A DNA stretch of 64,000 bases from a bacterium (GTDB lineage: Bacteria > Patescibacteriota > Patescibacteriia > UBA9934). Location: NCBI GenBank assembly GCA_027592325.1, contig JAQCKO010000001.1, forward strand, positions 20,247 through 84,246. The letters are read 5' to 3'. Each line of letters begins with the position of its first letter. The first letter of the stretch is position 1. The position numbers were made by a program, and so were the translations under genes. Shown here piece by piece: positions 8,495 through 54,774 of this stretch. The notes beneath the pieces are model-generated. The model had not been told where the DNA came from and did no database searches. It was given only the letters and a program-made list of their open reading frames with translations.

Positions 8495-8532
8495 CGCGCT
8501 TCCGACACACGGTCGGAGGCGCGTTTTCTCTT
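8495..8532 (+). terminator. Rho-independent terminator after the 8037-8474 gene
   Basis: GCGCTTCCGAC-ACAC-GGTCGGAGGCGCG stem-loop followed by TTTTCTCTT. Confidence 0.55.
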
Positions 8533-8616
8533 GTATAAGCGAAAGCGCCCACATCTCTGCAGGCGCCACGAGCTATTCAACGAGTACGAACTTGAAGTCG
8601 TCATCTGGAACACGGG

Positions 8617-9123
8617 CTAGGGCGTCGAGAAAACAGCGAGAACAGTGCCCCGTTTGAGAGCCTCGACAGTAAGCGTCGAGCCCCTCGGTACACGGGCGAC
8701 GTTTTCGAAAACGCTGACGGCGCGAAGAACCATCGACGTCTTCGTACCCGCGTCATTAGGCATCTGGAGGGTGATGCGAACGCTGCCCACAACCACCAGG
8801 AGCACCTTATCCTTCGTTTTGTGGTAGTGATCTCCTGCCGGCATCCCAATACGCTTTCCGCGTAGCATCGCGATCTGATCTTGGATCCATCCACGCACCC
8901 CAGGTCGCCCCTCAAAGACGACATAGTAGACGACATGGATTGTCTCAACTGGCACTCCCATGATATCGGCAATCACGGAAAGATGAGTCTGCACCAGATA
9001 GCGACCTGGCTTCGATCCATCTGGTGGAATCTGAAAAGACATTTGCTGCATGACACGAACCTCCCCGCGAAAACCTAGCAAAACAAATTGTAAATGACAA
9101 ACGCTGGATCCTGCAGTCCTCAC
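8617..9123 (-). CDS. Hypothetical protein, possibly cupin-like (GC-rich islet); the true start may be Met25 at 9051
   Basis: 168 aa. G-x5-HYH-x3-D-x6-G (IGMPAGDHYHKTKDKVLLVVVG) approximates cupin motif 1. Convergent with the 8037 gene. GC-rich. Confidence 0.4.
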   Translation of the reverse strand: MRTAGSSVCHLQFVLLGFRGEVRVMQQMSFQIPPDGSKPGRYLVQTHLSVIADIMGVPVETIHVVYYVVFEGRPGVRGWIQDQIAMLRGKRIGMPAGDHYHKTKDKVLLVVVGSVRITLQMPNDAGTKTSMVLRAVSVFENVARVPRGSTLTVEALKRGTVLAVFSTP

Positions 9124-10935: not shown

Positions 10936-12552
10936 TTATGCATCAACTCCAGAAAGTATCGCCTCCTCTGGTTTTGCCTTTTTTCGCACACGTCGCTCAA
11001 GTCCCACAAGAATAGACAATAGCTCCTCAGCACGAAGAACGTACAAAAGCGCTATATAAACAATAAACGCAAGGCTACCAGCGAATAACCCCTGGCCAAA
11101 TACACCCCAGAAGGTATTTAGTGTGAAACCGAGCGTTTCGGTGGCAATTGTTTTAAAGCCTTGTAATGATCCTGCTGTCACAATTCCCGCAATACTGAAT
11201 TTAATGAGTGCATTCAACACATCACTAAATCCATCTGCCTTTATGCGCGATGAAAGCAAGGCAAAAAGCGCAATCGCCTGTAGTACAGCAGACCCTGAGT
11301 ATGCGATTGCGATACCCTGAATCTGATAATGAGGAGTTAATAATAGTGCTGATGCAATGAATATTGTTGTACTCATAAGGCCAACAATAAACGGCGTCAT
11401 GGAATCATTCTTTGCAAAAAATGCTCTGACAAGAAGAAAAATGAGCCCATGTGCAATCAGACCCATCACAAGCCAACCCATCACATTGGCTGTTTGAATG
11501 GTCTCGGCCCAATCGTACGCACCAGCGCCAACAGCGACACGGACAATTTGCATACGGAGGCCATAGAAGAGAATGGTTGCAGGCACCATAAAAAGGAGCA
11601 TCTGTCGCATGGTAAGTGAAAGGATATCGCGAAAGTCTGCTGTGTCTCGTTTCCCTGCCTTTTCGCAAAGTGATGGAAACGCTGCGATGGCATAAGAAAC
11701 ACCGATAACACCAAGGGGGAAAAAGAATATATTATACGCAAATTGCAGCATGGTCACGGCGCCAACCGTGAGTGTAGATGCTATCGCTGTCATCGCAAGT
11801 AGATTCACCTGCCCTATGGCAAGACCCATCACGCGAGGTGGGAGGTGCCCCGCAATATAGCGAAGCGATGCGTCTCGAAAACGAAAAAGCAACCTGTACC
11901 GGTATCCAACAGCATATAGTCCGATAAGTTGAATCATGAGGTGAAAAAACGCCCCGCCGATCACACCAAATGCAAGCCCATTCAATCCAAATATTGGTAC
12001 GAGAAAAATTGATCCCAAAATGATTCCGAGATTGTAAAAAATAGGGGCAATAGCATACGGGAGAAAAACTTTTGCCCCCTGAAGCGCAGAACCAATCACC
12101 ATAGACGCTCCTAAAATAAGTTGTGCTACGAGCATGAGGCGTAGAAGCTCGATGACAGCAAGCTGTTTCTCGACGTCAAAACCGGGGGCAATGACATCAA
12201 CAAATACAGGAGCCATGATTGCAACAACAACCAGTAGCCCCGAGAAAATGACAGTGAGAATGGTGAGTGTATTACTCGTTAAATCCCATGCCTTCTGCTT
12301 GTGTTTTGCATATTCCTTTGTGAAAAGCGGAATGAAGCTTGCCGAGAGCGCCCCCACGACTATGAGCGCATAAAATAGATCAGGAAGTCGAAAGGCCGCA
12401 AAGTAAATATCAAGTTCATCTGATGCCCCGAATTCACCTGCAAGAATGCGATCTCGAATCAGCCCCACGATGCGCGATAAAATCGAAAAGAAGGCAACCA
12501 AAAATGCGGCGCTTGTAACCGTTCTTGCTGACCGTGATAATGCTTGCCTCAT
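10936..12552 (-). CDS. murJ: Lipid II flippase MurJ (MviN family)
   Basis: 538 aa, 14 TM. N-terminal ...ILSRIVGLIRDRILAGEFGASDELDIYFAAFRLP is the MurJ signature. Confidence 0.85.
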   Translation of the reverse strand: MRQALSRSARTVTSAAFLVAFFSILSRIVGLIRDRILAGEFGASDELDIYFAAFRLPDLFYALIVVGALSASFIPLFTKEYAKHKQKAWDLTSNTLTILTVIFSGLLVVVAIMAPVFVDVIAPGFDVEKQLAVIELLRLMLVAQLILGASMVIGSALQGAKVFLPYAIAPIFYNLGIILGSIFLVPIFGLNGLAFGVIGGAFFHLMIQLIGLYAVGYRYRLLFRFRDASLRYIAGHLPPRVMGLAIGQVNLLAMTAIASTLTVGAVTMLQFAYNIFFFPLGVIGVSYAIAAFPSLCEKAGKRDTADFRDILSLTMRQMLLFMVPATILFYGLRMQIVRVAVGAGAYDWAETIQTANVMGWLVMGLIAHGLIFLLVRAFFAKNDSMTPFIVGLMSTTIFIASALLLTPHYQIQGIAIAYSGSAVLQAIALFALLSSRIKADGFSDVLNALIKFSIAGIVTAGSLQGFKTIATETLGFTLNTFWGVFGQGLFAGSLAFIVYIALLYVLRAEELLSILVGLERRVRKKAKPEEAILSGVDA

Positions 12553-15325: not shown

Positions 15326-16025
15326 TATGGCCAAATCCGTATTCAAATAGATTCGTTCGAATCGGACCAAAGTGCCAAATATGGATTTCTGCCAATACGT
15401 AGACGGCAACTGAACGTAGTATACCATCCCGCTTAAAGCGGCGTGTTGACACATGAATGCGCTTACCGCGCTCGAGGTATCCAAAACGACCAATCTTGGC
15501 TGCTCGTAGTCCGTAATCATGATCTTCACAAAAAACGACCGTTTCATCAAAGCCATCAATGGCGTCGTGAAGGTCTTTTTTAACGAGGATAAAAAAACCT
15601 GGAATGTGAGGGTGAATTTTTGCCATCATGCGAACATAGCTATTGTAAATATAATGACCAATTTTTGAACCTAGCCCGGCTTCAATTGGCCAAACGTCGC
15701 AGCTCACAATATCAAGATTACGCTTCTGCATCTCAGCAATCGATGACGCAATAAGGTCTGGCTGCAGAAGAATCGTGTCCGCGTCTAGAAAAAGAATAAG
15801 ATCAGCTGATACGACACTTGCACCCCTATTTCGCCCCTCCCCAGGCAGGCCACCTGGAACAATCGTGGCTCCGAAGGACTCTACAATCTCTCTCGTTCCA
15901 TCATCTGATCCGGCATCGGCAATAATGACCTGCTTTGGCCGCAATGTTTGGCAGTTTATGCTCTCAAGAAGCCGCGGGATCGAATGTACTTCATTGAGCG
16001 TTGGGATAACAATGGAATACGTCAT
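15267..16025 (-). CDS. Family 2 glycosyltransferase
   Basis: 252 aa, MTYSIVIPTLNEVHSIPRLLESINCQT...IIADAGSDDGT...FLDAD. Confidence 0.8.
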   Translation of the reverse strand: MTYSIVIPTLNEVHSIPRLLESINCQTLRPKQVIIADAGSDDGTREIVESFGATIVPGGLPGEGRNRGASVVSADLILFLDADTILLQPDLIASSIAEMQKRNLDIVSCDVWPIEAGLGSKIGHYIYNSYVRMMAKIHPHIPGFFILVKKDLHDAIDGFDETVVFCEDHDYGLRAAKIGRFGYLERGKRIHVSTRRFKRDGILRSVAVYVLAEIHIWHFGPIRTNLFEYGFGHNEAHETHSIDKGGKARSGS

Positions 16026-32905: not shown

Positions 32906-33063
32906 ACATCATAGCATGCCGCTCCCGTAAACAATGAAGCGGTTCATACATATTTGTCTATATTGTTGTATCTGAAGCTATGATGGTGAAAACGGCTCAT
33001 GAACGTGTGCAAAGCCCGTGCTTGTCATTAACGCCCTGAACAGGATTCTGAATACACCCTCAG

Positions 33064-34059
33064 CTAAAATGGATGAAGCAAATTATGACGTCTTGACTGT
33101 TTTTCCGTTAATCGGCTTCGAAGCGCAGCACCAATCGCCGTCAAGTATAGAAGCACCTCATTTTGCTCGACGAATGGAATGGATAATCGTTCAACTACCG
33201 GAAATACATTTAATGAAAGAGATGTGAGCGTTGACAGTTGATCCGGACCTATCACTCCTGCATCGCCGGCCAGATACAGTCGAGGAATCTCGTACCCTAA
33301 CGAACGAAAATGCGTTACCACGCGCTGTATAGACGATTCGATCAGTTGCATTTCCACTGTATCAACGCGATTATCATGTTTGACGGCATTGTTTGCAGAA
33401 CGTATTGCACCTAGCGGTATAGAACGTGAGAAAAAGAGTCCACCAAAATAATCAAATAAACTTATTGTCGGCCAGTCACTATCTAGCTCAAGCAGCACTG
33501 CCAGTTCATTGTCTTTCAGAGCAACAATTTCACTACCAAAGTGTAAAATTGCACGATAATTGCTAAGCGCCTGCATTTCTATCACGGTCAAATCTACCTT
33601 TGGTACATGCAAAGCGCTCTGTATGTGGCCAGTATCTTCTCGTTCAGCCATGTACACGTCAAGGAGTAGGTAGTCATTCACACGTGCCGATTCTTCGATA
33701 GAGATGACGGCATCAGCGGTTTCTATAGGTGATCGACGCGCGACAGCCTGTAAAAGGTCGGCTTGAAACTGTACCTCAGACAGGCCTGATTTACACCAAA
33801 TACCCATGGTATACATACGGGAATTTGGCATCGATGCAATGGCGGAAATACGTCCGAGCGAACCTAGAAATGGCTCCAATGTTCTTAGAACTTCTTCTCC
33901 ATGTTGAATACGCCCGTCAACAATCATGCCTTCTGGAATAGGAATAGTCTGAAGCGCATGAATCGAACCTTTATTTGCAAGGACGGCGCATCGAACGCTT
34001 TGATCTGTAAATTGGATGCCAACAGTTTTTCCTCCCATATAGGGCATATTTAGCCCCAT
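33064..34059 (-). CDS. pilM: PilM-like type IV pilus assembly protein (actin-like ATPase fold), divergent
   Basis: 331 aa. Last gene of the pilus operon. N-terminal GIQFTD in place of the GIDIG phosphate-1 motif. Assignment rests partly on context. Confidence 0.5.
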   Translation of the reverse strand: MGLNMPYMGGKTVGIQFTDQSVRCAVLANKGSIHALQTIPIPEGMIVDGRIQHGEEVLRTLEPFLGSLGRISAIASMPNSRMYTMGIWCKSGLSEVQFQADLLQAVARRSPIETADAVISIEESARVNDYLLLDVYMAEREDTGHIQSALHVPKVDLTVIEMQALSNYRAILHFGSEIVALKDNELAVLLELDSDWPTISLFDYFGGLFFSRSIPLGAIRSANNAVKHDNRVDTVEMQLIESSIQRVVTHFRSLGYEIPRLYLAGDAGVIGPDQLSTLTSLSLNVFPVVERLSIPFVEQNEVLLYLTAIGAALRSRLTEKQSRRHNLLHPF

Positions 34060-34071
34060 TATACCATGAGG

Positions 34072-34572
34072 CTATCGCGTGAGAGAGATCGAAGAAGTAT
34101 TCTCAGATTCGCAGGCTTGAATAGTAATCGAGCCAGTCGTTGCCTTAGTGATGACGTATCCTGTTGTTCCTGCAGTCCAAGCAGTTGCACCTTGTGGACT
34201 AATTGGCATGGAACCCATGTATCCCTCCGTAACTAATCCACTCAAATCGGCACAGTGTGTATCACTCGCAACAGTTGCATCACATGTGTCGTCATCACAG
34301 CCGGTTGAATCCGTACCAATCATATATATTTGTGCGGCTGTCATATTATCTTTTATCTCTGTCAAATAATCGCCGCCATTATCTACCTGATCAATCTTAA
34401 TCGCATGAAGCAGCTCAGCGATATCAGAGAAGCGCCGAGCGTCACGTGCATCTTGAAATCGTGTACCTGGGTCAAGCGCCGCAAATACCACAGCCGCAAG
34501 GACGGCAAGAATAGAGATGACAATTAATAATTCAACGAGCGTGAATCCTTTTTGTGAAGAAAATCTTTTCAT
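34072..34572 (-). CDS. Type IV major pilin (prepilin N-terminal methylation motif)
   Basis: Start at MKRFSSQKG|FTLVELLIVISILAVLAAV. Cleavage after Gly, Phe+1, Glu+5. A C-terminal Cys pair (CDDDTC...C) for a disulfide loop. ~166 aa. Confidence 0.75.
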   Translation of the reverse strand: MKRFSSQKGFTLVELLIVISILAVLAAVVFAALDPGTRFQDARDARRFSDIAELLHAIKIDQVDNGGDYLTEIKDNMTAAQIYMIGTDSTGCDDDTCDATVASDTHCADLSGLVTEGYMGSMPISPQGATAWTAGTTGYVITKATTGSITIQACESENTSSISLTR

Positions 34573-34606
34573 AGATATGATTGGAAGTATTTTACCATAG
34601 GTGCGA

Positions 34607-35038
34607 TCAATCAATCTCACTCCAACTGGTGATATCTACCGACGAACCACTGACAGAAATTGCTGCAGATGCATTACGCACGTAGCCATTATTATCCGAT
34701 TCGACTGTAATTGTGCATGATGACGAGCATGGCGTTGCAGAGATAACAATCGTGCAATCAGCATTTCCCACACTTATGGCTCCGCCTGAATACGATGTGT
34801 CACGAGAAATACGTAACATTGCTTCATGAACACACGACTCTGCCGCTCCAATCGCATGGCCAGAAGCACGCGTCCCCTCCCCTAGCTCAATCGATCCAAT
34901 GGTCAAAAACACAAGACTTGATGTAACCACGAGTACAAGCGCTGTAAGTACCACAATACCTACCGTTGCCGCTGCGCCACGCGTATCAGACCTCAAGCGG
35001 GATACGAATAGCTGTTTGAAATTCTTCAACATAGTCAA
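34607..35038 (-). CDS. PilX-like pilus assembly protein (N-terminal PilX_N-type hydrophobic segment, no Glu+5)
   Basis: 143 aa. RG-AAATVGIVVLTALVLVVTSSL. Confidence 0.45.
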   Translation of the reverse strand: MTMLKNFKQLFVSRLRSDTRGAAATVGIVVLTALVLVVTSSLVFLTIGSIELGEGTRASGHAIGAAESCVHEAMLRISRDTSYSGGAISVGNADCTIVISATPCSSSCTITVESDNNGYVRNASAAISVSGSSVDITSWSEID

Positions 35039-35504
35039 AAAATGGTGAATTAGATGAGTTTATCGCTTCTAAAGTGTACTCGACCAAAACGATTCCTGCA
35101 TCATCAGCACTTGTAAGATTCGTGAAAACGAGATTCGTCACACGAACACGACCGGTTGTTAATTGTGTTGTTACGCCATTTATTCCTATTTGTAACGATC
35201 CATCATCTTCTGTCAGACTAAAGACCGTTGGATCTTCGCCGGAATCAACCATCGCGAACCGAAGCACTCCTGGATCAACGTCGAATGTTGAGCTTCCGAC
35301 CGTAATACTTGCTGCATGTCGGGCTGCATACGACAGTTTTGCCTGTATGATCGCGGCATTGTAGGCAACTTCAGCGAGCACCTCTGATTTTGCGCGATTT
35401 CGTGTCAGCGTTACAACATACTGCGTAGTAGCGATGAGGACAGAGCTCACAATCGCGACGTACAAAATCATCTCTACAAGGGTTGATCCACGCTTATTCA
35501 ACAT
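34986..35504 (-). CDS. Minor pilin / pseudopilin (prepilin-type)
   Basis: 172 aa. MLNKRG|STLVEMILYVAIV with Glu+5. Confidence 0.65.
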   Translation of the reverse strand: MLNKRGSTLVEMILYVAIVSSVLIATTQYVVTLTRNRAKSEVLAEVAYNAAIIQAKLSYAARHAASITVGSSTFDVDPGVLRFAMVDSGEDPTVFSLTEDDGSLQIGINGVTTQLTTGRVRVTNLVFTNLTSADDAGIVLVEYTLEAINSSNSPFFDYVEEFQTAIRIPLEV

Positions 35505-38319
35505 AGGAAATTGTCACATCTTCGAGCACCGGTGATGCCGATGTTGTTCCTGTCATATAGGCTTTCCACTGAAACCACTGCGTTCCACTTGTACCCGAAT
35601 GTGTCGCGAGCGAATCTCCACTTGTAGTGAATGTTGTTGCCGGGGTTCCATCTGACCCAACCCAAAGCGCATCGGCAAGCTCCGCCTCCGATGACGCTGT
35701 TCGAATACGAAATACAATATCGCCCGTCCCCGATTCCGTCCACTCAATCAATTGCCAGCTTGCAGAGGTTGATCCAGAATCATACGGTTGTGATGTGAAA
35801 TTGCCCTCATACGCATAGTCAGAAATGCTTCCTGGACCGAGTATCTGTAACTCAAGCGCATCATTCGCTGAGGCAACGTATGCATAGGTGCCGTCGTGGA
35901 AGACCCCTTGACCCCAATCATTCAAATCATACGTCACTTGCTGAGTCATAGAACCAGAAGAAACCGTCCAGCGTTGAAATTCATCATCTGTGTCCTCTGA
36001 TGCAATATAAATCGCCGCCCCACCACTTTCAACAAAGATATCCCAAATATCACCGGCAACATCGGCCGTTGTGAGCTCAGCAGGTGATCCGGGTGTTGAA
36101 ATGTCAAATTGATGAATTTCCGGATCAGCACTTAAAGTTCTTCCAACGTATAAGATCTCATTTGTGCTATCCACCTCAATTTCGAAGGCATCTGCAGCAC
36201 CAGTCAAATCTTGAGAAGAGCTTGTCAAAGAGGCCGGTGTTGACCAATCAAAAATCCATAACTCATTTGATGCGCCCGCACCATACATATAATCATCGTA
36301 AAATTTGATGCGTCGAATGTGCGTTCCGGTATTAACTGAATCCACAAATGAAGGGCTGGCGACACTCGATACATCGATAAGAAAAACTTCGTCCGCGGTC
36401 GATGCAAATCGTCCTAGCGTCACATAATTGCCTGATTTATCGAGTCCAATGCCATCTGAAGCCCCAGATGCGTCATAAAACCCCGCGCGCGTAGGAGATG
36501 ATTTCGTGGAAATGTCAATAATATCAAGCTCACGATTATTATGCGTTGTGGCTAAATAGGCGTAATTTCCATCAACCACCAAGTCATTCACATATGCACC
36601 AATTTCAAACCATCCCGTTAAAGAAGGTGTCGACGGAGTAGAAATATCGTAAATCAGAAACTCTGGCCCCGATGCGTCAGGATACGTTCCAATGTAAGCG
36701 TAATCGCCAGACACAACGATCGGACGTGCATTCGCTGTTCCAGAGATATTAGCCGATCCTATACTCGATAATACCGCCCATCCCCCTGTAGATGGCCCCA
36801 TTACCACAAGTTCACCGCTTCCATCTGAAGTGACATAAAAAATGTAACTTCCATAATCTGCAATATCGAGCGGCTGAGCGGCCAAATCGATGTTTTCATC
36901 TTCTGTGAGTCCATCAAGATCAATGATTTGCAAGTCTTCGGACGCATTTGTAGATGCAACAAATGCACGATCCGTATTCGGGTCAACAGAAAATGCCCTA
37001 TGTGTATTGCCTGTAATTAATGAGTCACCCACAGCAAACGATGATGCTGGATTGGTAATATCAATTTCGTAAAAACTTGCAATCGTCCCGCTTCCATCTC
37101 GCGAGACATAAAGAATCGTGCCGCTCACAGCAATGTGATAACTTGTTTGAGTTCCAACTAAATCAAGATCTGCAACCTCAGAATAATCAGATAAATCCAT
37201 CACCGCGAGCTCCTTTGATGTATTAGCCGTTGCAATATATGCATAGCTACTGTCAAGGGCGATGTCGCGCACACGGGCCGTTGCATCATAAGAACCGAGG
37301 AAGGACGGTGAGGCCGGGCTTGCAAGACTGTAAACAAATACTTCATCACCAGATGCATCGTTTGCTCTACCAACGACAAGTGTTGAATCAATAATCGCAA
37401 CGTCGTATGCATCCTCCGTCCCAGAAATATCGACGCTACCTACTTCTGTCATCGTGAGCAAATTTACAATTACAACCTCTTTTGCATCATCGCCGGTTAC
37501 CACATATCCATACTCTGTATAAATCGCAAGGTCATACGGCGTATACGAGCCAAGCTCAATTCCATCAATAAGGGTAGGTGCCACATTTTCAACGTTTGAC
37601 ACATCGTAACGATTTAATTCATCCCCAGTTGTTGCATCGAGCAGTACAAGGAGCTCATCCTGCGACTCCCATAGCAATAGCTCGATAGGAGCTGCACTCC
37701 CCGGGAGTGAGACAGTATACAATTCTTCAAGTGTAGACCAATCTGTTGAAACAGTCCGTAGGTCAATATCGCCGTCTCCTGATGCTGCCTGAGCCGTTGA
37801 CCCAAAAAAACTTCCATTATTAAATTCTGAGAGTAAATCTTGTGTCCACGTTTGTACTGCTGCAAAGTTGTACACGTAAAACACATGCGAGAGATTTACC
37901 AGTTTACTCGCCAATGTATACCAATTGATTGAAATTGTGATCTTTTTTGTTGCAGAATCTGCGACTCCACTTGCAGCAATATCCCCCGTAAGACTACCCG
38001 TTCGTGTGACATCTTCAACCAAAATACTGCGTGTATAGTTAGTAAGCACGCTTTCTGAACCAGATGCAAGTGCATAGCTTCCTAAAGCGGTATCTAAATG
38101 ATATGTTCCAGATGAAATGGTAGAAAAGTCTTGGTATGCAACAGAACGCACTCCCTCTATGCCTTCTTGAAGTAACCCAGAAGCAGCCACATAGTCAACC
38201 CCCTGTTTTCCTGATGCCGTAGCACGAAAAAGTGCACCAACCCCCGCTGATGCAAGCAAAGCGAAAATAGCGATGGCGAGTAGTATTTCGAATAATGCTA
38301 ACCCACGCTCGTCCTTCAT
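35494..38319 (-). CDS. Giant prepilin-like protein with a C-terminal beta-propeller (LVIVD-type repeats); putative pilus tip adhesin (PilY1-analogous)
   Basis: 941 aa. MKDERG|LALFEILLAIAIFALL (Gly, Glu+5), followed by many repeats of the form Y[AD][VI]A...D.YAY[IV]A...(S/T)...EL..(I/M)D, typical of beta-propeller blades. Confidence 0.65.
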   Translation of the reverse strand: MKDERGLALFEILLAIAIFALLASAGVGALFRATASGKQGVDYVAASGLLQEGIEGVRSVAYQDFSTISSGTYHLDTALGSYALASGSESVLTNYTRSILVEDVTRTGSLTGDIAASGVADSATKKITISINWYTLASKLVNLSHVFYVYNFAAVQTWTQDLLSEFNNGSFFGSTAQAASGDGDIDLRTVSTDWSTLEELYTVSLPGSAAPIELLLWESQDELLVLLDATTGDELNRYDVSNVENVAPTLIDGIELGSYTPYDLAIYTEYGYVVTGDDAKEVVIVNLLTMTEVGSVDISGTEDAYDVAIIDSTLVVGRANDASGDEVFVYSLASPASPSFLGSYDATARVRDIALDSSYAYIATANTSKELAVMDLSDYSEVADLDLVGTQTSYHIAVSGTILYVSRDGSGTIASFYEIDITNPASSFAVGDSLITGNTHRAFSVDPNTDRAFVASTNASEDLQIIDLDGLTEDENIDLAAQPLDIADYGSYIFYVTSDGSGELVVMGPSTGGWAVLSSIGSANISGTANARPIVVSGDYAYIGTYPDASGPEFLIYDISTPSTPSLTGWFEIGAYVNDLVVDGNYAYLATTHNNRELDIIDISTKSSPTRAGFYDASGASDGIGLDKSGNYVTLGRFASTADEVFLIDVSSVASPSFVDSVNTGTHIRRIKFYDDYMYGAGASNELWIFDWSTPASLTSSSQDLTGAADAFEIEVDSTNEILYVGRTLSADPEIHQFDISTPGSPAELTTADVAGDIWDIFVESGGAAIYIASEDTDDEFQRWTVSSGSMTQQVTYDLNDWGQGVFHDGTYAYVASANDALELQILGPGSISDYAYEGNFTSQPYDSGSTSASWQLIEWTESGTGDIVFRIRTASSEAELADALWVGSDGTPATTFTTSGDSLATHSGTSGTQWFQWKAYMTGTTSASPVLEDVTISYVE

Positions 38320-38768
38320 AATGTTGAGATGGTTCCGATGGCATTAATCGTCACCGCCACTGTTCGCGATGTATTCTCGTCTGTAATCGTCAGAGTTTGC
38401 GCCCCTGAAGCTGCATCGCCATTTCCGAAATCAAATCGTATGGTATTACCACCGCTATTTGAAATGGAAAGCTGGCCAGAAAGCGTATGTACTTCATCGT
38501 AATTTGTATCGCGTGATCCGTATGTTGCTCCTTTAAAAAGAGTATAGGATGTTGAATCGATCCGCACACTCCACATGTCATCTGATTCGCCATACATCGT
38601 CCTTAGCTGTGCTCTGCGTAATACTTCGATCAATCCATCCTCTGCTAGTTCAAGCTGATGGTTAGCGAATGCACGACCGGTGAGTGCCGTACTTATAACA
38701 GATAGCGTGGTAATGAGCGCGACCACGATAATGACCTCGACGAGGGTGAAGCCAAACTGTTTCGTCAT
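38316..38768 (-). CDS. Pseudopilin / minor pilin (GspH/FimT-like)
   Basis: 150 aa. MTKQFG|FTLVEVIIVVALI. Confidence 0.7.
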   Translation of the reverse strand: MTKQFGFTLVEVIIVVALITTLSVISTALTGRAFANHQLELAEDGLIEVLRRAQLRTMYGESDDMWSVRIDSTSYTLFKGATYGSRDTNYDEVHTLSGQLSISNSGGNTIRFDFGNGDAASGAQTLTITDENTSRTVAVTINAIGTISTL

Positions 38769-39859
38769 ATTGTGACACTGCCAGTGATTGAATAAATTGG
38801 CGTCAAAATAGAAAGTGCCAATAAGCCGACAAAAAGACCAAGCGCAATAAGGAGAACTGGTTCAATCATTGATGCAAGATTTTTCGATAAGACTTCTATA
38901 CGCTCCTCATAATAATCTGCCAAATAATTGAGTGTTGCTCCCAAATGCCCTGACCGCTCTCCGACTGCCGCCATACGCCTCAACATTTTCGGATACAATT
39001 TTGGGGCAATTTCCAAACTTTCCGACAGTGTCATGCCGGTTTTTACGCGTTCAAGTGCGCGCTTCGCCATCTGTTTATATGCGACATTCCCAAGCGCATC
39101 GCTCGTTACTTTAGTTGCCTCGACAATCGGCGTACCGCTCTCAAGTAGTGTTGAAAGGATTCGACAAAACCGTGCTCGCTGATAGTCGTTCACAAAGCTA
39201 TTGAGTCCTGGTATGTATAAATATGTTCTATCAATATACGGCCGTGCAAATGGCAGACGTGACAACATCACACTCCCAATCAAGACAGCAATCGTGAAAA
39301 CAGTAATAAGAAGGCCATGCCGATCAAAAAGGTTTGCCGTCCAGATAAGCGCACGTGTTGTAATTGGTAACTCAACATTAAGCGAAGTAAAAACATCGGT
39401 AATTTGTGGCAAAACAAAATTTGCTATTCCAAAAAACAAGGCAAGTGACGCAGTAAATACAAGTCCAGGGTAAAGCATAGACGATTGAACCTGTCGCTTA
39501 ATTTTCAAGTCACGCTCCATTTGAATAAATACACGCTCTAAATTCATTGCAAGGGTTCCAGACTGTTCTCCAATGATAATCGAGCTCACAATAAATGGCT
39601 TAAAAATACGTGGTTCAAGCTGTAATGCATCGCCTAGGCTCGCCCCTGCATGCACACGCTTTGATAGACGTTCTAAAACTGGTCGCAATGCACTCCGTTT
39701 GGGTGATTGATCAAAGAGAATATCAAGCGACTCCGGGAGCGTCAGTCCAGCAGAAAGCATAACGGACAAGTTTTTTAAAAACTGAACTAAGTCGACTCCT
39801 TTAACGCCTGTCGTTATTTGAAATGCGAGAATCTTTTTAAGCAGGGTTTTGTTCGCCAT
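38765..39859 (-). CDS. pilC: Type IV pilus platform protein PilC (GspF family)
   Basis: 364 aa. Two GspF repeats with 3 TM. 4-nt overlaps on both sides. Confidence 0.85.
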   Translation of the reverse strand: MANKTLLKKILAFQITTGVKGVDLVQFLKNLSVMLSAGLTLPESLDILFDQSPKRSALRPVLERLSKRVHAGASLGDALQLEPRIFKPFIVSSIIIGEQSGTLAMNLERVFIQMERDLKIKRQVQSSMLYPGLVFTASLALFFGIANFVLPQITDVFTSLNVELPITTRALIWTANLFDRHGLLITVFTIAVLIGSVMLSRLPFARPYIDRTYLYIPGLNSFVNDYQRARFCRILSTLLESGTPIVEATKVTSDALGNVAYKQMAKRALERVKTGMTLSESLEIAPKLYPKMLRRMAAVGERSGHLGATLNYLADYYEERIEVLSKNLASMIEPVLLIALGLFVGLLALSILTPIYSITGSVTI

Positions 39860-39860
39860 A

Positions 39861-41552
39861 CTACTTCGTTACGCGCAATACTTCTTCAAGTGCAGTCACA
39901 CCAGCAAGCGCCTGCTCGACGCCATGCTGAAGCATCGTCACCATTCCTTCCTGAATAGCCACCTCTTGTATTTCATCACTGTTTTTTTGCTGCATGATTG
40001 CAACGCGTACGGCATCAGTTACTTCAAGGATTTCAAAAATCCCAACGCGACCACGGAATCCTGTTTGACCACAAACTGGACACCCTTTTGCATGAAAAAG
40101 CCTTAATTCTGCGAACGGGCGACCAGCAAGCTGCTTTTCGATTGCCGCCTTCACCTCTGGACGTGATTCGATCAATTGCAACTCTTCAGCACTAGCTTGC
40201 TTACTGTACAAACATTTTCTACATAGCTGCCTCACAAGTCGCTGTGCAACGACACCAATCATTGTTGAGCTGATCAAAAACTCCTCTACCGACATATCGC
40301 GAAGTCTTGGAAAAGCGGTTGCCGCATTGTTTGTATGAAGCGTTGAAAGCACTAAATGGCCTGTCAGTGCTGCGTTAACGGCAATATCGGCTGTTTCTGA
40401 ATCACGAATTTCTCCGACCATAATAATATCGGGGTCTTGACGCACAATTGAACGTAACCCTTTTGCAAATGTCAGCTTTGTTTTTTCATTGACTTGAATT
40501 TGATTTACCCCATCAATATCGTACTCTACAGGATCTTCAATGGTCGAAATATTGACATTGCGTTTATTGAGCATTTTTACGCCAGCATACAATGTCGTCG
40601 TTTTACCACTCCCCGTCGGTCCGGTGACTAAAATCATTCCCCATGGTTTCTTAATTGCATCCGCGAACAAGTCAAGTTCCCGAGTGTGGAATCCCAAATC
40701 ACGTAAGCTAAATTGTCGTGAACGCTCAGAAAGCAGTCGCATCACGACTTTTTCTCCGTCAGTGACAGGGACAATTGAAACACGAATTTCAATATCTTCC
40801 TTTCGCTTTGATTCATACGATATCTTTCCGTCAAGGGCGGACTGATGTTCATCAGTTGGTAATCGAGATAACACTTTTATACGCGTCACCATATGGTCGT
40901 GCAGTTTTTTCGGCACGGTCACGACATCGTGCAATAATCCATCAACTCGAAAACGTACTAAGGTCTCTTCATCCTCTGGTTCAATATGTACGTCTGATGC
41001 TCTCGCTTGGTACGCACGTTCTATAAGTTCCTCAACCAACTGAATGACAGCCTGACCGGAAGCATCGATATCTTTTCCACCTGCACGCTCAATATAATCT
41101 GCAAGGACCGTCTCTGCATCCTTTTCAAAAAGGTGATAATGCGATGTTAAATCTCGCGGCGTAACAAATACGTAACGAATTTCATGCCGAGTAAATTTTT
41201 CAAGAAGACTTTTTGTCTCTAGATCGCCAGGATGTGAGGTTGCAACGCGTATAAATCCTTCATGCAATTGAAGCGGAAAGACATGATTCGCCCTTGCAAA
41301 ACTTTCAGGAATAAGCCGAAGAACGTTACGATCAACCTGAAAATCTGCAAGCTCTAAAAACGGTACACTTAACATATCGGCAATTAATTGTCCTATTTGA
41401 CGATCTTCAAGAGCATCTGATTCAACTAAAACAGTGTAAAGATCCTTTTGTTCTTTTTTTGCCGTTTCACTTGCAGCAGTGAAGGTCTCTTCCGTAACTG
41501 CTCCAGACGTTACAAGTGCTTTTTTGTATTGTTCCTCCGAAAGTAATGACAT
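39861..41552 (-). CDS. pilB: Type IV pilus assembly ATPase PilB (GspE family)
   Basis: 563 aa. Walker A LVTGPTGSGKTTT, Asp box, His box, and a tetracysteine motif CPVCGQTGFRGRVGIFE. Confidence 0.9.
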   Translation of the reverse strand: MSLLSEEQYKKALVTSGAVTEETFTAASETAKKEQKDLYTVLVESDALEDRQIGQLIADMLSVPFLELADFQVDRNVLRLIPESFARANHVFPLQLHEGFIRVATSHPGDLETKSLLEKFTRHEIRYVFVTPRDLTSHYHLFEKDAETVLADYIERAGGKDIDASGQAVIQLVEELIERAYQARASDVHIEPEDEETLVRFRVDGLLHDVVTVPKKLHDHMVTRIKVLSRLPTDEHQSALDGKISYESKRKEDIEIRVSIVPVTDGEKVVMRLLSERSRQFSLRDLGFHTRELDLFADAIKKPWGMILVTGPTGSGKTTTLYAGVKMLNKRNVNISTIEDPVEYDIDGVNQIQVNEKTKLTFAKGLRSIVRQDPDIIMVGEIRDSETADIAVNAALTGHLVLSTLHTNNAATAFPRLRDMSVEEFLISSTMIGVVAQRLVRQLCRKCLYSKQASAEELQLIESRPEVKAAIEKQLAGRPFAELRLFHAKGCPVCGQTGFRGRVGIFEILEVTDAVRVAIMQQKNSDEIQEVAIQEGMVTMLQHGVEQALAGVTALEEVLRVTK

Positions 41553-41917
41553 TAGGCGAGTTCCGCTTTGATTTTGTCGATCACATCTCCAATAGATGTA
41601 TCTGATTTCACAATAAAATCTTTTGCGCCGAGTTCTTTTGCCCGAGCCATATCTTCATCTTGTCCAAGATTTGACAGCACATAAACAGGAATAGTGTTTA
41701 GATCACTATCTGCAGACATTGCTTCAAGTACTCCAAATCCATCGAGCTTTGGCATGATAAGATCGAGTAAAATGAGTTTTGGACGAGCGCCTCGCATCAT
41801 TTCAAGCCCCATTTCTCCGTCAACAGCAAACTCTGCATCAATCCCTTCGTTTTTGAGCTTCGTACTGTAAATTTTTGAGAGGAATTTATCGTCCTCAATA
41901 ATCAACACTTGAGCCAT
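41552..41917 (-). CDS. Stand-alone CheY-like response regulator receiver
   Basis: Start at MAQVLIIEDD. Phospho-acceptor Asp in LLDLIMP. Its stop overlaps the pilB ATG (TAATG). Confidence 0.75.
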   Translation of the reverse strand: MAQVLIIEDDKFLSKIYSTKLKNEGIDAEFAVDGEMGLEMMRGARPKLILLDLIMPKLDGFGVLEAMSADSDLNTIPVYVLSNLGQDEDMARAKELGAKDFIVKSDTSIGDVIDKIKAELA

Positions 41918-41939
41918 ACTAACTTCATTATACCATTTT

Positions 41940-43634
41940 TTACCACGATCCACCTCCGCCTCCACCAAAACCACCCCCAGAGACTCCCCCACCAGATGAA
42001 CCGCTTGACGTCGGAGCGGCCGCAGATGCAATACTTGTCGTAACCGCGCTGAGATCATTCAAGACGGTCAAAGCACCGTACTGTACTCCATTTGCATGAA
42101 CCCATTCCGGAGTTTTGACGTTGATATCCTTGAATACGTTCGCCCATTTATGCGTAAGTTTAAACGCGATCGCGTAGGGAAGCATTGTTGTAAATAATTG
42201 TTCATCTTCTTCAAATTTAGCACGATATGTTTCTGCTGTTTCTAAATAGAGTTTGAATCCGAGCAATCTTCTCACCAATTCATTACCAGCTGGCGTACGC
42301 TTTGGCATCAATACTCCAAAACAGACGGTCAAGAGCCCTGAAAACACTGATGTCACAATCAATAAACTCCCATATACGGTCCCGCCAAAAAATGTACCCA
42401 TGACAAATATCGCCATGCCCACCAGCATAAAGACAATCACATGTCTGTGACTATTTTTTGTGAAGATATCGGCGTTGTCTATTGCCTGTTTTAGCTTCGG
42501 TTTCACTTGTGTTTCTATTTTTTCTGCGCCGTTTTTTTTGAATGCAGCGAGCGTAACCGTTTCACGTTCGGAAAACAACAGATCAAAAAGCGCTTTATGC
42601 GCAGAATCAAGTCCTTCCCCGTCGCGTTTTTTTACAAAATGTAATTTGGTTTCAGGAATTCGCTTAGATGTATGCTCATCAACAACAATCGTCAGGTACC
42701 CGCTTGAAGCAAGGGTAATAATCATGACAGAAATATCATGAGAGACTACTCCCGTGCGCGTAAACATTCCTGCATATGTTGGCAGTAAATCGTTAGGGGA
42801 TTCGTACTCTGCAATAATGGTATGCATTCTAGGGTCTCGGCCATGTCTGAACCAAAACCATACGACAAAGAATATCCAAATAAGGGGCATTGCTGCGAGC
42901 CAATTATCTTCTAGAAACCACGTCAAACGCTCGGAACCCAAAGGCTCTCTCACAATACCTTTTGTGAACCCAATCGCTATTGTCCCAAATCCATCACCGG
43001 TAAAAATAGCCCCCTGATCAAGAGCATCTTCCGACGTTTTTTCTATTGTACAGTTTTGTTCCTTAGAGCCGAATGTCCCCGTATAACAACTTTCCTCAAG
43101 CGAATATGCTCCTTCTGGCAATCTTACCGACCCACTAAACATACTTACAGGCACCTCCCACTCTTCCCCTGTCACATTCCAGTAGAATTCATCTTTGTCC
43201 TCTAAGTAGAGAAGCGCCCTGTCAACGGTATAAAAAATTGTGTAATTGTGTTGCCGCTGAGTAAGGTAGACGTCCGGGTCTCCGATTTTAATGCGTACAT
43301 AGCGTCCTGCGCGAGAAATTTCGAACGGAACTTCCTTTCCATCCATATATACCGCATACACATCTAGTTCAATACGTTGTCTATTTCCAAATTGATCCGT
43401 GTAACGGAATGGAATATCCCGAAATATGCCATGTTTCATTGATCCTTCAAAGAAATTCGTAGCTATTTCTTCTCGCACCGAAATTGTCGCGTCTTCATGT
43501 ATCTCAATATCAACATGCATCCGATCAATCGCCCAGCTACCCGAAGAAGGCTGTGCGTCTACAAGTCGCGGAAAAAGAAAACTACTCGAGGAACAGATTA
43601 CGATTAACAATATGACCTTCCAGTGTTTCTGCAT
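41940..43634 (-). CDS. DUF2207-family membrane protein with a Gly-rich C-terminal tail
   Basis: 564 aa. Signal peptide, large N-terminal domain, 3 TM, and a C-terminal SSGSSGGGVSGGGFGGGGGGSW tail. Confidence 0.6.
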   Translation of the reverse strand: MQKHWKVILLIVICSSSSFLFPRLVDAQPSSGSWAIDRMHVDIEIHEDATISVREEIATNFFEGSMKHGIFRDIPFRYTDQFGNRQRIELDVYAVYMDGKEVPFEISRAGRYVRIKIGDPDVYLTQRQHNYTIFYTVDRALLYLEDKDEFYWNVTGEEWEVPVSMFSGSVRLPEGAYSLEESCYTGTFGSKEQNCTIEKTSEDALDQGAIFTGDGFGTIAIGFTKGIVREPLGSERLTWFLEDNWLAAMPLIWIFFVVWFWFRHGRDPRMHTIIAEYESPNDLLPTYAGMFTRTGVVSHDISVMIITLASSGYLTIVVDEHTSKRIPETKLHFVKKRDGEGLDSAHKALFDLLFSERETVTLAAFKKNGAEKIETQVKPKLKQAIDNADIFTKNSHRHVIVFMLVGMAIFVMGTFFGGTVYGSLLIVTSVFSGLLTVCFGVLMPKRTPAGNELVRRLLGFKLYLETAETYRAKFEEDEQLFTTMLPYAIAFKLTHKWANVFKDINVKTPEWVHANGVQYGALTVLNDLSAVTTSIASAAAPTSSGSSGGGVSGGGFGGGGGGSW

Positions 43635-49663: not shown

Positions 49664-51685
49664 CTACTTCTTTTTCTTATCGCCATTATAGAGCCATGGC
49701 TTTTGGAACAGCTTAAATTGACTTGCGAATTTGAGGAATACACGCGTTACAAGAACTGCCGTAAGCATAGAGATAATAATACCGAGCGCGAGTGTGAGGG
49801 CAAATCCCTTCACAAAGCTGGTACTCATAGCGAACAGAATAATCGCCGCAATGAGCGTGGTTGCATTTCCATCACGAATGGATGTCCAGGCCCGTTTGAA
49901 TCCTTCGTTGATTGCAGAAGGAAGATCACGCCCACTGCGAAGCTCTTCTTTCAATCGCTCAAAGATAAGCACATTCGCATCAACGGCCATTCCGATCGAA
50001 AGGATGAATCCAGCGATTGACGCAAGGCTCAGAGTCACGCCAAGCCATTTGTAGAGGGCGAGGTTCGTCACGGTGTACACGCCAAGCGCCAGCACAGCAA
50101 TGACTCCAGCAAGGCGATAATAGAGAATCATGAAGGCAGTGACCAAAATGAGCCCAGCGATTGCGGCTTGAATACTCCGATCAAGTGAAACCTGCCCAAG
50201 GGTTGGTCCAACGGTTCGTTGAGAAAGCAGATCGATCGGCACCGGAAGTGCCCCTGCATTTAGGCGCTGCGCAAGAAGTTTTGCTTCATCGAGGGTAAAT
50301 CCACCAGTAATTGTTGCCTCACCTCCGTAAATCGCTTGCTGAACAATAGGGGTCGAAATCGCCTCTCCATCAAGGAAGATTCCTATAACCTCTCCAATAT
50401 TCGCTTCGGTGATTTGGCCAAACAGCTCTCCCCCAACCGCGTCAAAATCTAAAACGACGAATGGTGTTCCAGTGAATTGATCGAAGGCTACTGAAGCACC
50501 TCGGACATTCCCTCCAGAAAGTTCGGTATTCTCCCAAGGATCAATGCTGAGTACATCTCCGGCCGTTGTCCATGGCATTTCAATATGCGCAATTTCATAT
50601 GCCGTTTTTGAACGAGTATCCTCTCGGAATATGAGATGATATCCGAATTGCGTTTCAACAAGCTCAGAAATCTCTCCGTCAGAAAGATCATCAAAAAGCG
50701 CATTTTCAAATGGTTCGACCATCATGCCACGAGTCACCCAGTCAAGGCTTCCGCCGACTGTTGCCGACGCTGTGTCATCACTTTGCTCTTCAGCCACCTC
50801 TGCAAAATTCTCTTTCGTCAAATTGGAAAGCAGTTCTTGCGCGAGCAGCTGTGCCTCTATTTTTGTTCGATCATTTGTACATCCCTCTGAATCTTGGTGA
50901 CAAAGCAAAATATGTGACCCAAGCACCTCTTCGCGTGCTTCAGATCGGAGGTAATTTACAATGTGAATTGATGACGTTCCTTCATATAATCCATCAACGA
51001 CACCTGGCTGCAGGCGACGATTCGAAGCGAATTCATCAGCGAGTCCATCAAAAATCGGATGCGTATCATCAATGAATCCAATATATCCACCTAATTGAGC
51101 GGTGGTGATATCAACCGAAAGTTCCCCTGCAATGACAGAAAAATCTTCTCCAGCAAATGCACGGTCAAGAACGGCAAGGGCATCTTCGCGCTCAATAGTA
51201 TTTGCGGAATCAATCTCTGCTTGCTGTTCGTCAGTGACTTCAAGGTCAACCTCTTCAAGAGGTGTTTTGAACTCCAGAATAGGCGTTTCCCCAATTTCCT
51301 GAATGGCATCGCTAATATCGAAGACTCCGGCAAGCTCAACAATGACACGATAGTGATCGCCCTGAATATTCGTTTGTACGACAGGTTCCGAAACACCATA
51401 TGCGTTCACACGGCGCTCGATCACATCGCGAACGCCCTCCAGTGCATTTGCGCGATCTGACTCCGGAATAGTCGTCATATCAGCCTCGTACACCAAATGC
51501 GCTCCGCCTTGAAGGTCGAGACCTAGCCGAAATGGTTCGTCGTTGAGCGGAAGTGCGCTACCCAAAACCTGATTCCAAGGTCCAGGAAAAGCGACGGAGA
51601 GAAAGAAAAAAGACAACAATAGAACACCTACGACACTCGCCGTCAGTTTTCGCATCAATTTCGATCGTTTCGTTGATTTTGCCAT
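49664..51685 (-). CDS. secD: Protein translocase subunit SecD with an inserted parvulin-type (PpiC) domain in the periplasmic region
   Basis: 673 aa. SecD TM bundle at the C-terminus. The internal segment GGSLDWVTRGMMVEPFENALFDLSDGEISELVETQFGYHLIF matches the parvulin PPIase signature. Confidence 0.85.
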   Translation of the reverse strand: MAKSTKRSKLMRKLTASVVGVLLLSFFFLSVAFPGPWNQVLGSALPLNDEPFRLGLDLQGGAHLVYEADMTTIPESDRANALEGVRDVIERRVNAYGVSEPVVQTNIQGDHYRVIVELAGVFDISDAIQEIGETPILEFKTPLEEVDLEVTDEQQAEIDSANTIEREDALAVLDRAFAGEDFSVIAGELSVDITTAQLGGYIGFIDDTHPIFDGLADEFASNRRLQPGVVDGLYEGTSSIHIVNYLRSEAREEVLGSHILLCHQDSEGCTNDRTKIEAQLLAQELLSNLTKENFAEVAEEQSDDTASATVGGSLDWVTRGMMVEPFENALFDDLSDGEISELVETQFGYHLIFREDTRSKTAYEIAHIEMPWTTAGDVLSIDPWENTELSGGNVRGASVAFDQFTGTPFVVLDFDAVGGELFGQITEANIGEVIGIFLDGEAISTPIVQQAIYGGEATITGGFTLDEAKLLAQRLNAGALPVPIDLLSQRTVGPTLGQVSLDRSIQAAIAGLILVTAFMILYYRLAGVIAVLALGVYTVTNLALYKWLGVTLSLASIAGFILSIGMAVDANVLIFERLKEELRSGRDLPSAINEGFKRAWTSIRDGNATTLIAAIILFAMSTSFVKGFALTLALGIIISMLTAVLVTRVFLKFASQFKLFQKPWLYNGDKKKK

Positions 51686-54616: not shown

Positions 54617-54686
54617 CAGAGCCGAAGCTGAGTGGTCAGCGCCGACATGGCAGTCGGAGGTCGCAGGTTCGAATCCTGCCGGCTCT
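54617..54686 (+). tRNA. tRNA-like gene with canonical acceptor, D and T arms (GGTTCGAATCC) but a 6-nt anticodon loop (ATGGCA); identity undetermined, possibly GGC-like
   Basis: AGAGCCG/CGGCTCT acceptor, GCTG-AGTGGT-CAGC D-arm, GCAGG-TTCGAAT-CCTGC T-arm. The only consistent anticodon stem (CCGAC/GTCGG) leaves a 6-nt loop. No encoded CCA. Confidence 0.55.
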
Positions 54687-54688
54687 AT

Positions 54689-54760
54689 TGCATCTGTAGC
54701 TCAACTTGCTAGAGCAGCGAACATGGTTCGAAGGTCAACGGTTCAAACCCGGTCAGATGC
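54689..54760 (+). tRNA. tRNA-like gene / possible tRNA pseudogene: D-loop lacks GG, and the anticodon arm is 2 nt short (CGAA-CATGG-TTCG)
   Basis: GCATCTG/CAGATGC acceptor, GCTC-AACTTGCTA-GAGC D-arm, AACGG-TTCAAAC-CCGGT T-arm (one mismatch). 2 nt after the previous tRNA. Confidence 0.4.
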
Positions 54761-54774
54761 ATTCTTCCGCGCAT

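Follow-up and report, generated by a model that had tools for sequence, protein, structure and literature searches.

A receiver gene tied to the pilus motor in a compact type IV pilus cluster of a Patescibacterium

We analyzed a 64,000-nt stretch of DNA ("the window") from a bacterium of the Patescibacteriota (UBA9934; assembly GCA_027592325.1, contig JAQCKO010000001.1, positions 20,247 to 84,246) and focused on nine open reading frames (ORFs) that all run in the same direction on the minus strand, from position 41917 to position 33064 of the window. These encode, in order, a stand-alone receiver (REC), PilB, PilC, a GspH/FimU-like pilin, a 941-aa pilin, a GspI-like pilin, a PilX-like protein, the major pilin, and PilM. 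Each product was assigned by hidden Markov model (HMM), profile, or fold, which bears out the gene content, order, and strand given in an earlier reading of the DNA letters (the original prediction) as well as its identification of a type IV pilus assembly cluster. We consider it likely, with a probability of roughly 0.62, that this cluster encodes the core machinery of a type IVa-like pilus in a Patescibacterium, a member of the candidate phyla radiation (CPR) whose cells lack an outer membrane, and that it works according to the full model set out below. Type IV pili are nearly universal in Patescibacteria, and the cluster is ordinary for this group except that the receiver is genetically tied to the pilus motor, to which it is fused in many relatives.

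The receiver (41552 to 41917, minus strand) is a CheY-like single-domain response regulator of 121 aa (Pfam Response_reg, 1.4e-19, 70.8 bits) in which the acidic pocket, phospho-acceptor aspartate, Ser/Thr, and lysine of a functional receiver were all found. Residues D9, D10, D52, S80, and K104 align with D12, D13, D57, T87, and K109 of CheY, and S80 and F100 fall at the T87/Y106 positions of that protein. D9, D52, and K104 are invariant across the receivers aligned (CheY and ten pilB-linked receivers), and the D/D/K and S/T phospho-acceptor residues are kept in all of the pilB-linked ones. The stop codon of REC overlaps the start codon of pilB by 1 nt in a common TAATG, as had been predicted, and this stop-start overlap is also found in the related locus L092 (related loci are designated here by L numbers).

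Comparison with other loci links the receiver to PilB more broadly. REC lies directly 5' of pilB in 7 of the 72 related loci with upstream sequence (L004, L009, L011, L015, L017, L020, and L047), including 6 of the 13 best-scoring loci, and it also does so in L092. In L009, L011, L015, and L017 a HisKA+HATPase_c histidine kinase is encoded directly 5' of REC, giving the order kinase-REC-pilB. The L015 locus (Jorgensenbacteria) encodes a single 567-aa protein with both a Response_reg domain (residues 10 to 113) and a T2SSE ATPase domain (residues 180 to 563). When 90%-identity clusters were matched to this fused PilB, 113 of the best 120 had the same REC-ATPase fusion, with named sources that include Yanofskybacteria, Liptonbacteria, Minisyncoccia, and Paceibacterota. 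The ATPase core of the window PilB is 51 to 53% identical to those of the fused (L015) and short-form (L010) PilBs; full-length alignments to other loci have 36 to 49% identity. Fusion in sister lineages is classical evidence of a physical or functional partnership, and the suggestion in the original prediction that REC controls pilus assembly therefore gains comparative support from gene adjacency, a linked kinase in relatives, fusion, and intact phospho-acceptor residues. From these patterns we infer direct, phosphorylation-dependent control of PilB by REC. More tentatively, and at slightly less than even odds, the extension motor itself may be the output of a two-component system in many Patescibacteria, with REC either fused to the ATPase in place of the MshEN/cyclic di-GMP-type N terminus of PilB or split from it and coupled, and with the window cluster representing a PilN/O-less, kinase-unlinked version of the core.

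The assembly ATPase, platform protein, and PilM were identified with different degrees of ease. PilB (563 aa; 39861 to 41552, minus strand) has an N-terminal MshEN/GSPII-N domain (1.7e-16) followed by a T2SSE ATPase domain (8e-126; 420 bits against a cut-off of 24.9) with a Walker A motif (GPTGSGKT) and the tetracysteine motif CxxC...CxxC (CRKC...CPVC). It scored 522 bits against the TIGR02538 pilB model and 518 bits against the TIGR02533 gspE model, both below the model cut-offs, and its assignment to the PilB subfamily therefore rests on context. Control by cyclic di-GMP through the MshEN domain was considered and set aside, since by eye both RLGxx..G..Q motifs are degenerate, with YKK for RLG and D for the second G. 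PilC (364 aa; 38765 to 39859, minus strand) contains two T2SSF domains (8e-54, 181 bits), so that the homology originally proposed for both proteins is confirmed by HMM; PilC scored 248.7 bits against the GspF model and 203.5 bits against the PilC model, again below both cut-offs. Most other loci have a PilC of roughly 400 aa, and the window protein is about 40 residues shorter at its N terminus. A short PilC (349 to 364 aa) is also encoded by the closest relatives (L004, L005, L015, and L026), and the region shortened in the window protein is the part that faces the ATPase.

The last gene of the cluster encodes PilM, a protein with an actin-like ATPase fold (324 aa from its corrected start; 33064 to 34038, minus strand). 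Its match as a single sequence is weak (TIGR01175, 4.7e-10, below the cut-off), and a word-index search for homologs returned two proteins; the family was therefore built from an exhaustive HMMER search, which showed it to be narrow (42 representatives among 1.84 billion sequences). A profile of 35 family members compared to PDB matched PilM of P. aeruginosa (5.5e-21) and also PilM of M. xanthus and T. thermophilus. The structure prediction that had been proposed as a check gave an AlphaFold2 (AF2) model with the PilM fold and high confidence (predicted local distance difference test [pLDDT], 90; predicted template modeling score [pTM], 0.90), for which the best Foldseek match was PilM (1e-20; TM-score of 0.71 to T. 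thermophilus PilM), ahead of FtsA and of the GspL cytoplasmic domain (1e-9). On the strength of this model and the family profile, the protein is identified as PilM.

Several components of better-known pilus machines were not found in cis, by which we mean the window and the 10 kb to its left (74 kb in total). We searched the window with Pfam on flanking ORFs and with tblastn and blastp using Patescibacterial PilT, PilD, PilN, and PilO and six histidine kinases as queries, and looked through the 10 kb to its left for the same components. No prepilin peptidase (PilD, peptidase A24) was recovered by Pfam or by tblastn with Patescibacterial PilD, nor was PilN or PilO by queries from L009, L011, and L017, although the sequences of the latter two proteins diverge quickly; pilM is directly followed by a 158-nt gap with no ORF. 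A first tblastn search with the L051 PilT missed even the PilB of the window and was repeated by blastp and with the PilB ATPase domain, which matched only itself in the window, such that neither a PilT nor any other second T2SSE ATPase was found there or in the 10 kb to the left. No secretin domain was present among the window ORFs scanned with Pfam. The original prediction, which listed a retraction ATPase, a secretin, a prepilin peptidase, and PilN/PilO as lacking nearby, thus holds in cis.

The lack of a secretin is consistent with the host, as an outer-membrane secretin is not expected in Patescibacteria. In a comparison with 185,579 species genomes, the PilB loci closest to that of the window came from Patescibacteria metagenome-assembled genomes (MAGs; 46 to 49% identity), and the closest named full-length homolog of the 941-aa pilin is annotated as Candidatus Uhrbacteria, both of which fit the monoderm-type, secretin-less machine that was originally suggested. 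The flanking genes, in the window and to its left, are housekeeping genes by Pfam (SecA, SecDF, MurJ, a penicillin-binding protein, Mur ligases, alanyl-tRNA synthetase, and ribosomal proteins). An identical operon with all nine ORFs intact is present in three assemblies, including MAG GCA_027621985.1. With respect to class, a PilB/GspE-type ATPase, a platform protein with two T2SSF domains, class III pilin signals, and PilM place the cluster among type IV filament systems; of the components not found in cis (PilD, PilN/PilO, PilT, and PilQ), the last two do not count against membership.

The pilins themselves form a further part of the evidence. In a six-frame scan of the window the G-1/E+5 prepilin motif occurs four times, and all four occurrences are in the cluster. 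The expectation that these N termini would score as prepilin signals held for the 150-aa pilin (N_methyl, 24.9 bits) and the major pilin (36.3 bits) and failed for the 941-aa (17.1 bits) and 172-aa (17.6 bits) proteins, which are below the Pfam cut-off; the TIGR model divides the four proteins in the same way. The major pilin (166-aa precursor; 34072 to 34572, minus strand; N_methyl, 3.6e-9; TIGR02532, 33.7 bits) begins MKRFSSQKG/FTLVELLIVISILAVLAAVVF, where the slash marks the cleavage site, and has a short, type IVa-like leader cleaved at MKRFSSQKG/FTLVE; an alignment of its family shows that it is conserved in Patescibacteria. The GspH/FimU-like minor pilin (150 aa; MTKQFG/FTLVE; 38316 to 38768, minus strand) matches GspH (7e-4), scores above the cut-off of TIGR02532, and has a weak match to ComGD. 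The GspI/PilV-like minor pilin (172 aa; MLNKRG/STLVE; 34986 to 35504, minus strand) has a gspI match of 0.008 and homologs at the equivalent position in L005, L020, L032, L049, and L092. The PilX/GspK-like protein (34607 to 35032, minus strand; RSDTRG/AAATVGIVVL) lacks the E+5 residue and matches PilX_N at 0.0095, below the cut-off, and has a blastp match of 1e-14 to the gene at the equivalent position in L005; its start is ambiguous, with two gene callers disagreeing between an ATG at 35032 (141 aa) and a TTG at 34996 (129 aa).

The giant modular pilin (941 aa; MKDERG/LALFE; 35494 to 38319, minus strand; LVIVD, 7e-22) is the most distinctive of these proteins. Its AF2 model (pLDDT, 76) combines a 63-residue helix (residues 5 to 67) on a sheet (71 to 150), which together form a pilin lollipop, with a disordered linker, an all-beta region (185 to 830) of about 15 four-stranded blades, and a beta-sandwich (835 to 940). 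The top Foldseek matches in PDB are tandem double propellers in generic WD/propeller proteins, and no specific ligand can therefore be inferred. About seven full-length homologs exist (29 to 40% identity), in which the pilin module and the C-terminal domain (about 110 aa) are conserved while the number of LVIVD blades varies. Judging by the predicted architecture, this protein is probably a tip adhesin.

Both large and major pilins vary between co-occurring strains. The strain variant L002 comes from a second sample and is otherwise 99.5 to 100% identical to the window. Apart from a truncation of REC described below, the two differ within the operon only by an in-frame insertion of 24 nt in the gene of the giant propeller pilin (window 37098 to 37102) and by one of 16 aa in the major pilin, within its hydrophobic helix (window 34479 to 34497). 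Either strain variation is concentrated in surface-exposed parts or the differences are assembly errors.

A small element that spares the reading frame was observed in the pilin genes of related Patescibacteria, outside the window. Perfect inverted repeats, (A)CCCCGTTAGAG...CTCTAACGGGG(T), mark its boundaries, and it lies in frame between a duplicated G-F-T in the leader, just before the G/FTLIE cleavage site. The L026 locus (Yanofskybacteria) has three 277-bp copies (9535 to 9811, 10293 to 10569, and 12146 to 12422) encoding a GIY-YIG nuclease domain (Pfam, 6e-15), with a further occurrence at 2034 to 2156, and L015 has 82-bp hairpin copies in pilins at 12438 to 12519 and 15533 to 15614. Among the metagenome loci L093 to L212, the left repeat was found nearby in 95 of 126 matches to the right repeat followed by TTYAC, and a canonical prepilin N terminus came next, in frame, in 27 of the 126, a count to be read with the bias of the search pattern toward pilins. 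This may be a mobile element that spares its host gene by being cut off by the prepilin peptidase.

The arrangement of the nine genes differs from what was first described. Overlaps of 1 to 4 nt had been reported throughout, which does not stand: an overlap or gap of that size is present at only four of the eight junctions. After the TAATG of REC and pilB, there is a gap of 1 nt between pilB and pilC and a 4-nt overlap (ATGA) at both the pilC/150-aa pilin and the 150-aa/941-aa pilin junctions; the 941-aa and 172-aa pilin genes then overlap by 11 nt, the 172-aa pilin gene and pilX by 11 or 47 nt depending on the choice of PilX start, and gaps of 34 and 33 nt separate pilX from the major pilin gene and the latter from pilM. 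Translational coupling along the entire operon is thus unsupported, given the 11-nt overlaps and the 33- to 34-nt gaps. The last of these gaps follows from a correction to the pilM start, which was first placed at 34059 and is probably the eighth codon (M8, at 34038), because a relative with 61% identity starts there and has lost the upstream ATG.

Both of these gaps and the one in front of REC contain the sequence TGGTAWAAT, a textbook extended -10 element. On the minus strand, TGGTATAAT is found at 41927 to 41935, in the 22-nt gap that follows a DUF2207 gene, 10 nt ahead of the REC start; TGGTAAAAT at 34589 to 34597, 17 nt upstream of the major pilin ATG in the 34-nt gap; and TGGTATAAT again at 34058 to 34066, 20 nt upstream of the corrected pilM start. 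The motif was noticed by reading the junctions and was afterwards tested separately against the window: it has three matches in 64 kb on both strands (0.98 expected by chance), all of them within the cluster and each 10 to 20 nt 5' of the start codon of a cluster gene. Relatives retain it, with TGCTATACT at the equivalent spot before REC in L092, TGGTAGAAT at the equivalent spot before the major pilin in L084 to L086 amid diverged flanks, and an unchanged TGGTATAAT before pilM in L084, L085, and L086, where the upstream ATG is missing and nearby bases differ. Since the sites lie in the gaps before REC, the major pilin, and pilM, the major pilin probably has its own promoter, and the conserved motif 17 nt upstream contradicts the earlier view of this gene as merely embedded in the operon with no expression signal of its own. 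The three sites probably divide the cluster into the units REC to pilX, major pilin, and pilM, and we infer three transcription starts with very short leaders, with REC at the head of the first unit.

Related loci show that this gene set is maintained. The L092 cassette comprises DUF2207, REC (120 aa), PilB, PilC, a 146-aa pilin, a 945-aa LVIVD pilin, a 180-aa pilin, a PilX-like protein, PilM, and the major pilin; beyond it lie a LOG-family gene and a gene for a 522-aa protein. The window cluster has the same flanks, with DUF2207 upstream and, downstream, a LOG-family gene and one for a 521-aa membrane protein, and the gene order of the two differs solely by a swap of pilM and the major pilin. 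The cassettes of L092, L005, and L020 share a common core and are likewise without pilN/pilO; operons of the more distant L009, L011, and L017 end in pilM-pilN-pilO. Because the cassette and its flanks are kept in L092 even though the two PilM proteins are only 22% identical, the comparison indicates that the reduced gene set is not a product of decay.

Two observations concern the flanks of the cluster. The DUF2207 membrane protein (window 41940 to 43634, minus strand) ends 22 nt upstream of REC, and the order DUF2207-REC-pilB is kept in L092; this genomic context hints at a possible functional link between the protein and the pilus genes. On the other side, L084, whose PilM is 61% identical to that of the window, encodes a 2,153-aa protein (positions 2198 to 8659; CarboxypepD_reg, weak bMG3) that begins 4 nt after pilM and precedes the LOG-family gene, and the counterpart of this insertion in the window is the 158-nt gap at 32906 to 33063.

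In the model we favor, PilB is the extension ATPase, PilC the membrane platform, and PilM the cytoplasmic actin-like ring or adaptor, functions that follow from homology and fold. The GspH-like, GspI-like, and PilX/GspK-like proteins and the 941-aa propeller pilin make up a likely priming or tip set of four. Filament formation would be nucleated by the minor pilins, which would hold the propeller pilin at the tip, where it would serve as an adhesin toward a host cell or a surface, in parallel to PilY1 or to the PilX2 protein of Saccharibacteria. Genes for a prepilin peptidase and, if there is one, a retraction ATPase would lie elsewhere in the genome. With putative extended -10 promoters at REC, the major pilin, and pilM, the cell could produce the structural pilin in excess, while the TAATG overlap would lead to REC being made stoichiometrically with PilB. 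An unlinked histidine kinase would then phosphorylate D52 of REC, which in one phosphorylation state would bind PilB and alter its ATPase activity or its engagement with PilC/PilM, such that pilus extension is gated by an external signal.

A number of points weigh against this model. Gene adjacency and fusion are indirect evidence of a contact between REC and PilB, and the adjacency is absent from 65 of the 72 related loci. No histidine kinase was found in the window, by Pfam or by tblastn with the six kinases from related loci, or in the 10 kb to the left; in a lineage without a kinase in cis, REC could take its phosphate from acetyl phosphate or not be phosphorylated at all. In L002, REC is cut 75 nt before its stop codon and the remaining operon is intact. 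PilD and PilT were not found in the 74 kb, and PilN/PilO, the membrane dock of PilM in studied systems, are missing here while present in L009, L011, and L017. The model of the giant pilin has low global confidence (pTM, 0.46). The three-promoter arrangement rests on one motif, and a generic scan for sigma-70 promoters and terminators over 32 to 44 kb gave counts no higher than in shuffled sequence; nor was a terminator identified in the 158-nt gap after pilM, where the predicted fold is not more stable than those of shuffles (z = -0.97).

The L002 contig bears on the dispensability of REC and is of some interest in itself. The junction is at window position 41626, and all sequence 5' of the last 75 nt of REC is replaced by 1.86 kb of 32% GC DNA (L002 positions 1 to 1860), compared with approximately 44% GC for the genome. 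ORFs in this foreign segment encode a DnaG-type zinc-ribbon protein and a 164-aa protein with a GIY-YIG-like motif and no Pfam match. The truncation is either a mobile-element insertion, in which case REC would be dispensable, or the result of a chimeric contig, as the contig begins there.

Some of these points would be accommodated if the receiver did not regulate PilB at all, being instead a phosphate sink or a part of an unrelated two-component branch that shares the pilB promoter, with a constitutive pilus. The missing kinase, the rarity of the adjacency among related loci, and the truncated REC of L002 are in keeping with this, as are the extra receivers near the L004 and L009 loci, which phosphorelays and sinks also have. 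We nonetheless regard it as unlikely, since 113 of the 120 best clusters join REC and the PilB ATPase in one polypeptide, the kinase-REC-pilB order is recurrent, the stop-start overlap is kept in L092, and stand-alone receivers that act on PilB have experimental precedents in EmvR and DrdR, discussed below.

A machine that serves mainly for DNA uptake, as a competence (Com-type) pseudopilus, is less probable still, and the competence-like character originally suggested is not supported. Patescibacteria lack nucleotide synthesis and are thought to scavenge DNA, and both the lack of a retraction ATPase in cis and partial matches to the ComGA, ComGB, and ComGD models could be read in this way. 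However, all Com models scored below their cut-offs (ComGA, 255.5 bits against 300; ComGB, 152 against 240; ComGC, 19 against 75; ComGD, 26.6 against 70), and the PilB/GspE and GspF models scored higher. PilM, which is absent from ComG operons, is present here, the major pilin (157 aa when mature) is far larger than ComGC, the 941-aa double-propeller pilin favors adhesion, and Pfam scans of the window ORFs found no comEA, comEC, or dprA. The cluster was accordingly rejected as a member of the ComG class, although competence and adhesive or motility roles are not mutually exclusive.

A type II secretion system (T2SS)-like pseudopilus that exports proteins is very improbable: the GspE and GspF models equal or beat the PilB and PilC models and the minor pilins resemble GspH, GspI, and GspK, but GspE and GspF are below cut-offs, no secretin (GspD), GspC, GspL, or GspM was found in the 74 kb, the host has no outer membrane, Foldseek places PilM with PilM rather than GspL, and the major pilin family is common to Patescibacterial pilus loci, all of which led us to reject membership in this class. 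We dismiss just as readily an eroding remnant that builds no pilus after losing PilN/O, PilT, PilD, and the kinase from a kinase-REC-pilB...pilM-pilN-pilO ancestor of the kind seen in L009, L011, and L017, given that all nine reading frames are intact and have the same sequence in three assemblies and that the reduced set persists in L092 (with the same flanks), L005, L020, and L084, a persistence in diverged relatives that only purifying selection explains.

Two features elsewhere in the window were also recorded. A SecD homolog (673 aa; 49664 to 51685, minus strand) contains a PpiC-type peptidyl-prolyl isomerase domain (Rotamase_3, 7e-28), which is placed between SecD_1st and the P1-head domain; it is unusual for a foldase to be fused into a translocon accessory protein in this way. 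On the plus strand, Rfam identifies two tRNA genes 2 nt apart at 54618 to 54761 (54618 to 54687 and 54690 to 54761), of which ARAGORN reports only the first, with an undetermined anticodon.

Type IV pili are the best-supported means by which ultrasmall CPR bacteria find and hold host cells. For the question of how these bacteria time pilus extension, the locus points to a simple and testable answer in the form of a CheY-like receiver that acts on PilB, from which it is split here and to which it is fused in more than 100 related protein clusters. If this is true, pilus extension, and hence host capture, would be directly gated by phosphorylation, and the REC-PilB link provides a concrete handle on the regulation of pilus extension in episymbionts. 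The cluster also offers a compact reference for a PilN/O-less machine and, in its double-propeller pilin, a candidate adhesin that is well defined and differs in sequence among co-occurring strains. The general understanding of how type IV pili work is unchanged, and the operon as such would not surprise a specialist, since loci without a retraction ATPase, minor pilins that resemble pseudopilins, and a propeller-bearing minor pilin have already been described in TM7x. In the literature searched, of which our coverage was incomplete, neither fusion nor adjacency of REC and PilB is described for CPR bacteria, and the same holds for a receiver-PilB module and for a stable PilM-only, PilN/O-less core.

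The closest known system is that of TM7x (Nanosynbacter lyticus, Saccharibacteria; T4P-1 and T4P-2), which like the window cluster is a Patescibacterial, secretin-less PilB-PilC-PilM machine with one small major pilin, several minor pilins resembling T2SS pseudopilins, and one very large minor pilin with a beta-propeller, PilX2, which is required for host binding; locus 2 of TM7x also lacks a retraction ATPase (PMC11623550). The two differ in that TM7x has PilN and PilO in both machinery loci and PilT and PilD in locus 1, and the TM7x paper makes no mention of a response regulator (PMC11623550). PilX2 carries a single RCC1-type 7-blade propeller and no recognizable prepilin signal (PMC11623550), whereas the large pilin of the window has the G-1/E+5 motif and a tandem LVIVD propeller.

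For the receiver, the nearest parallels are EmvR, a stand-alone receiver of Xanthomonas oryzae that binds PilB and, depending on its own phospho-acceptor residues, lowers the ATPase activity of PilB (PMC11973254), and DrdR of X. campestris, which binds PilB and PilT (PMC13507683). These proteins resemble the window REC in having no output domain, in their intact phospho-acceptor residues, and in acting, or being proposed to act, on PilB. They are orphan regulators in diderm proteobacteria, while the Patescibacterial REC is known from sequence, is translationally coupled to pilB in the window, and in sister lineages replaces the N-terminal domain of PilB by fusion. CheY-like receivers that bias PilB localization or activity are also found in PilG/PilH (Pil-Chp) and the cyanobacterial PixG/PixH-type systems, which work through chemotaxis-like pathways with a CheA-type kinase and methyl-accepting chemotaxis proteins or through PATAN domains. 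Direct contact between PilG and PilB has not been reported, and the relatives of the window cluster have a small classical HisKA kinase, unlike Pil-Chp.

The tip complex likewise has counterparts. In diderm type IVa pili, the GspH/I/J/K-like core minor pilins FimU/PilV/PilW/PilX prime assembly and, with PilY1, expose a bulky beta-propeller or another adhesive module at the tip. The window resembles these core minor pilins, and the modular pilins of Streptococcus sanguinis, in pairing a priming set with a bulky tip module. PilY1 is not itself a pilin, whereas the propeller of the window cluster is covalently part of one, as in modular pilins, and with its two propellers and 941 aa the window protein is much larger than the S. 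sanguinis modular pilins.

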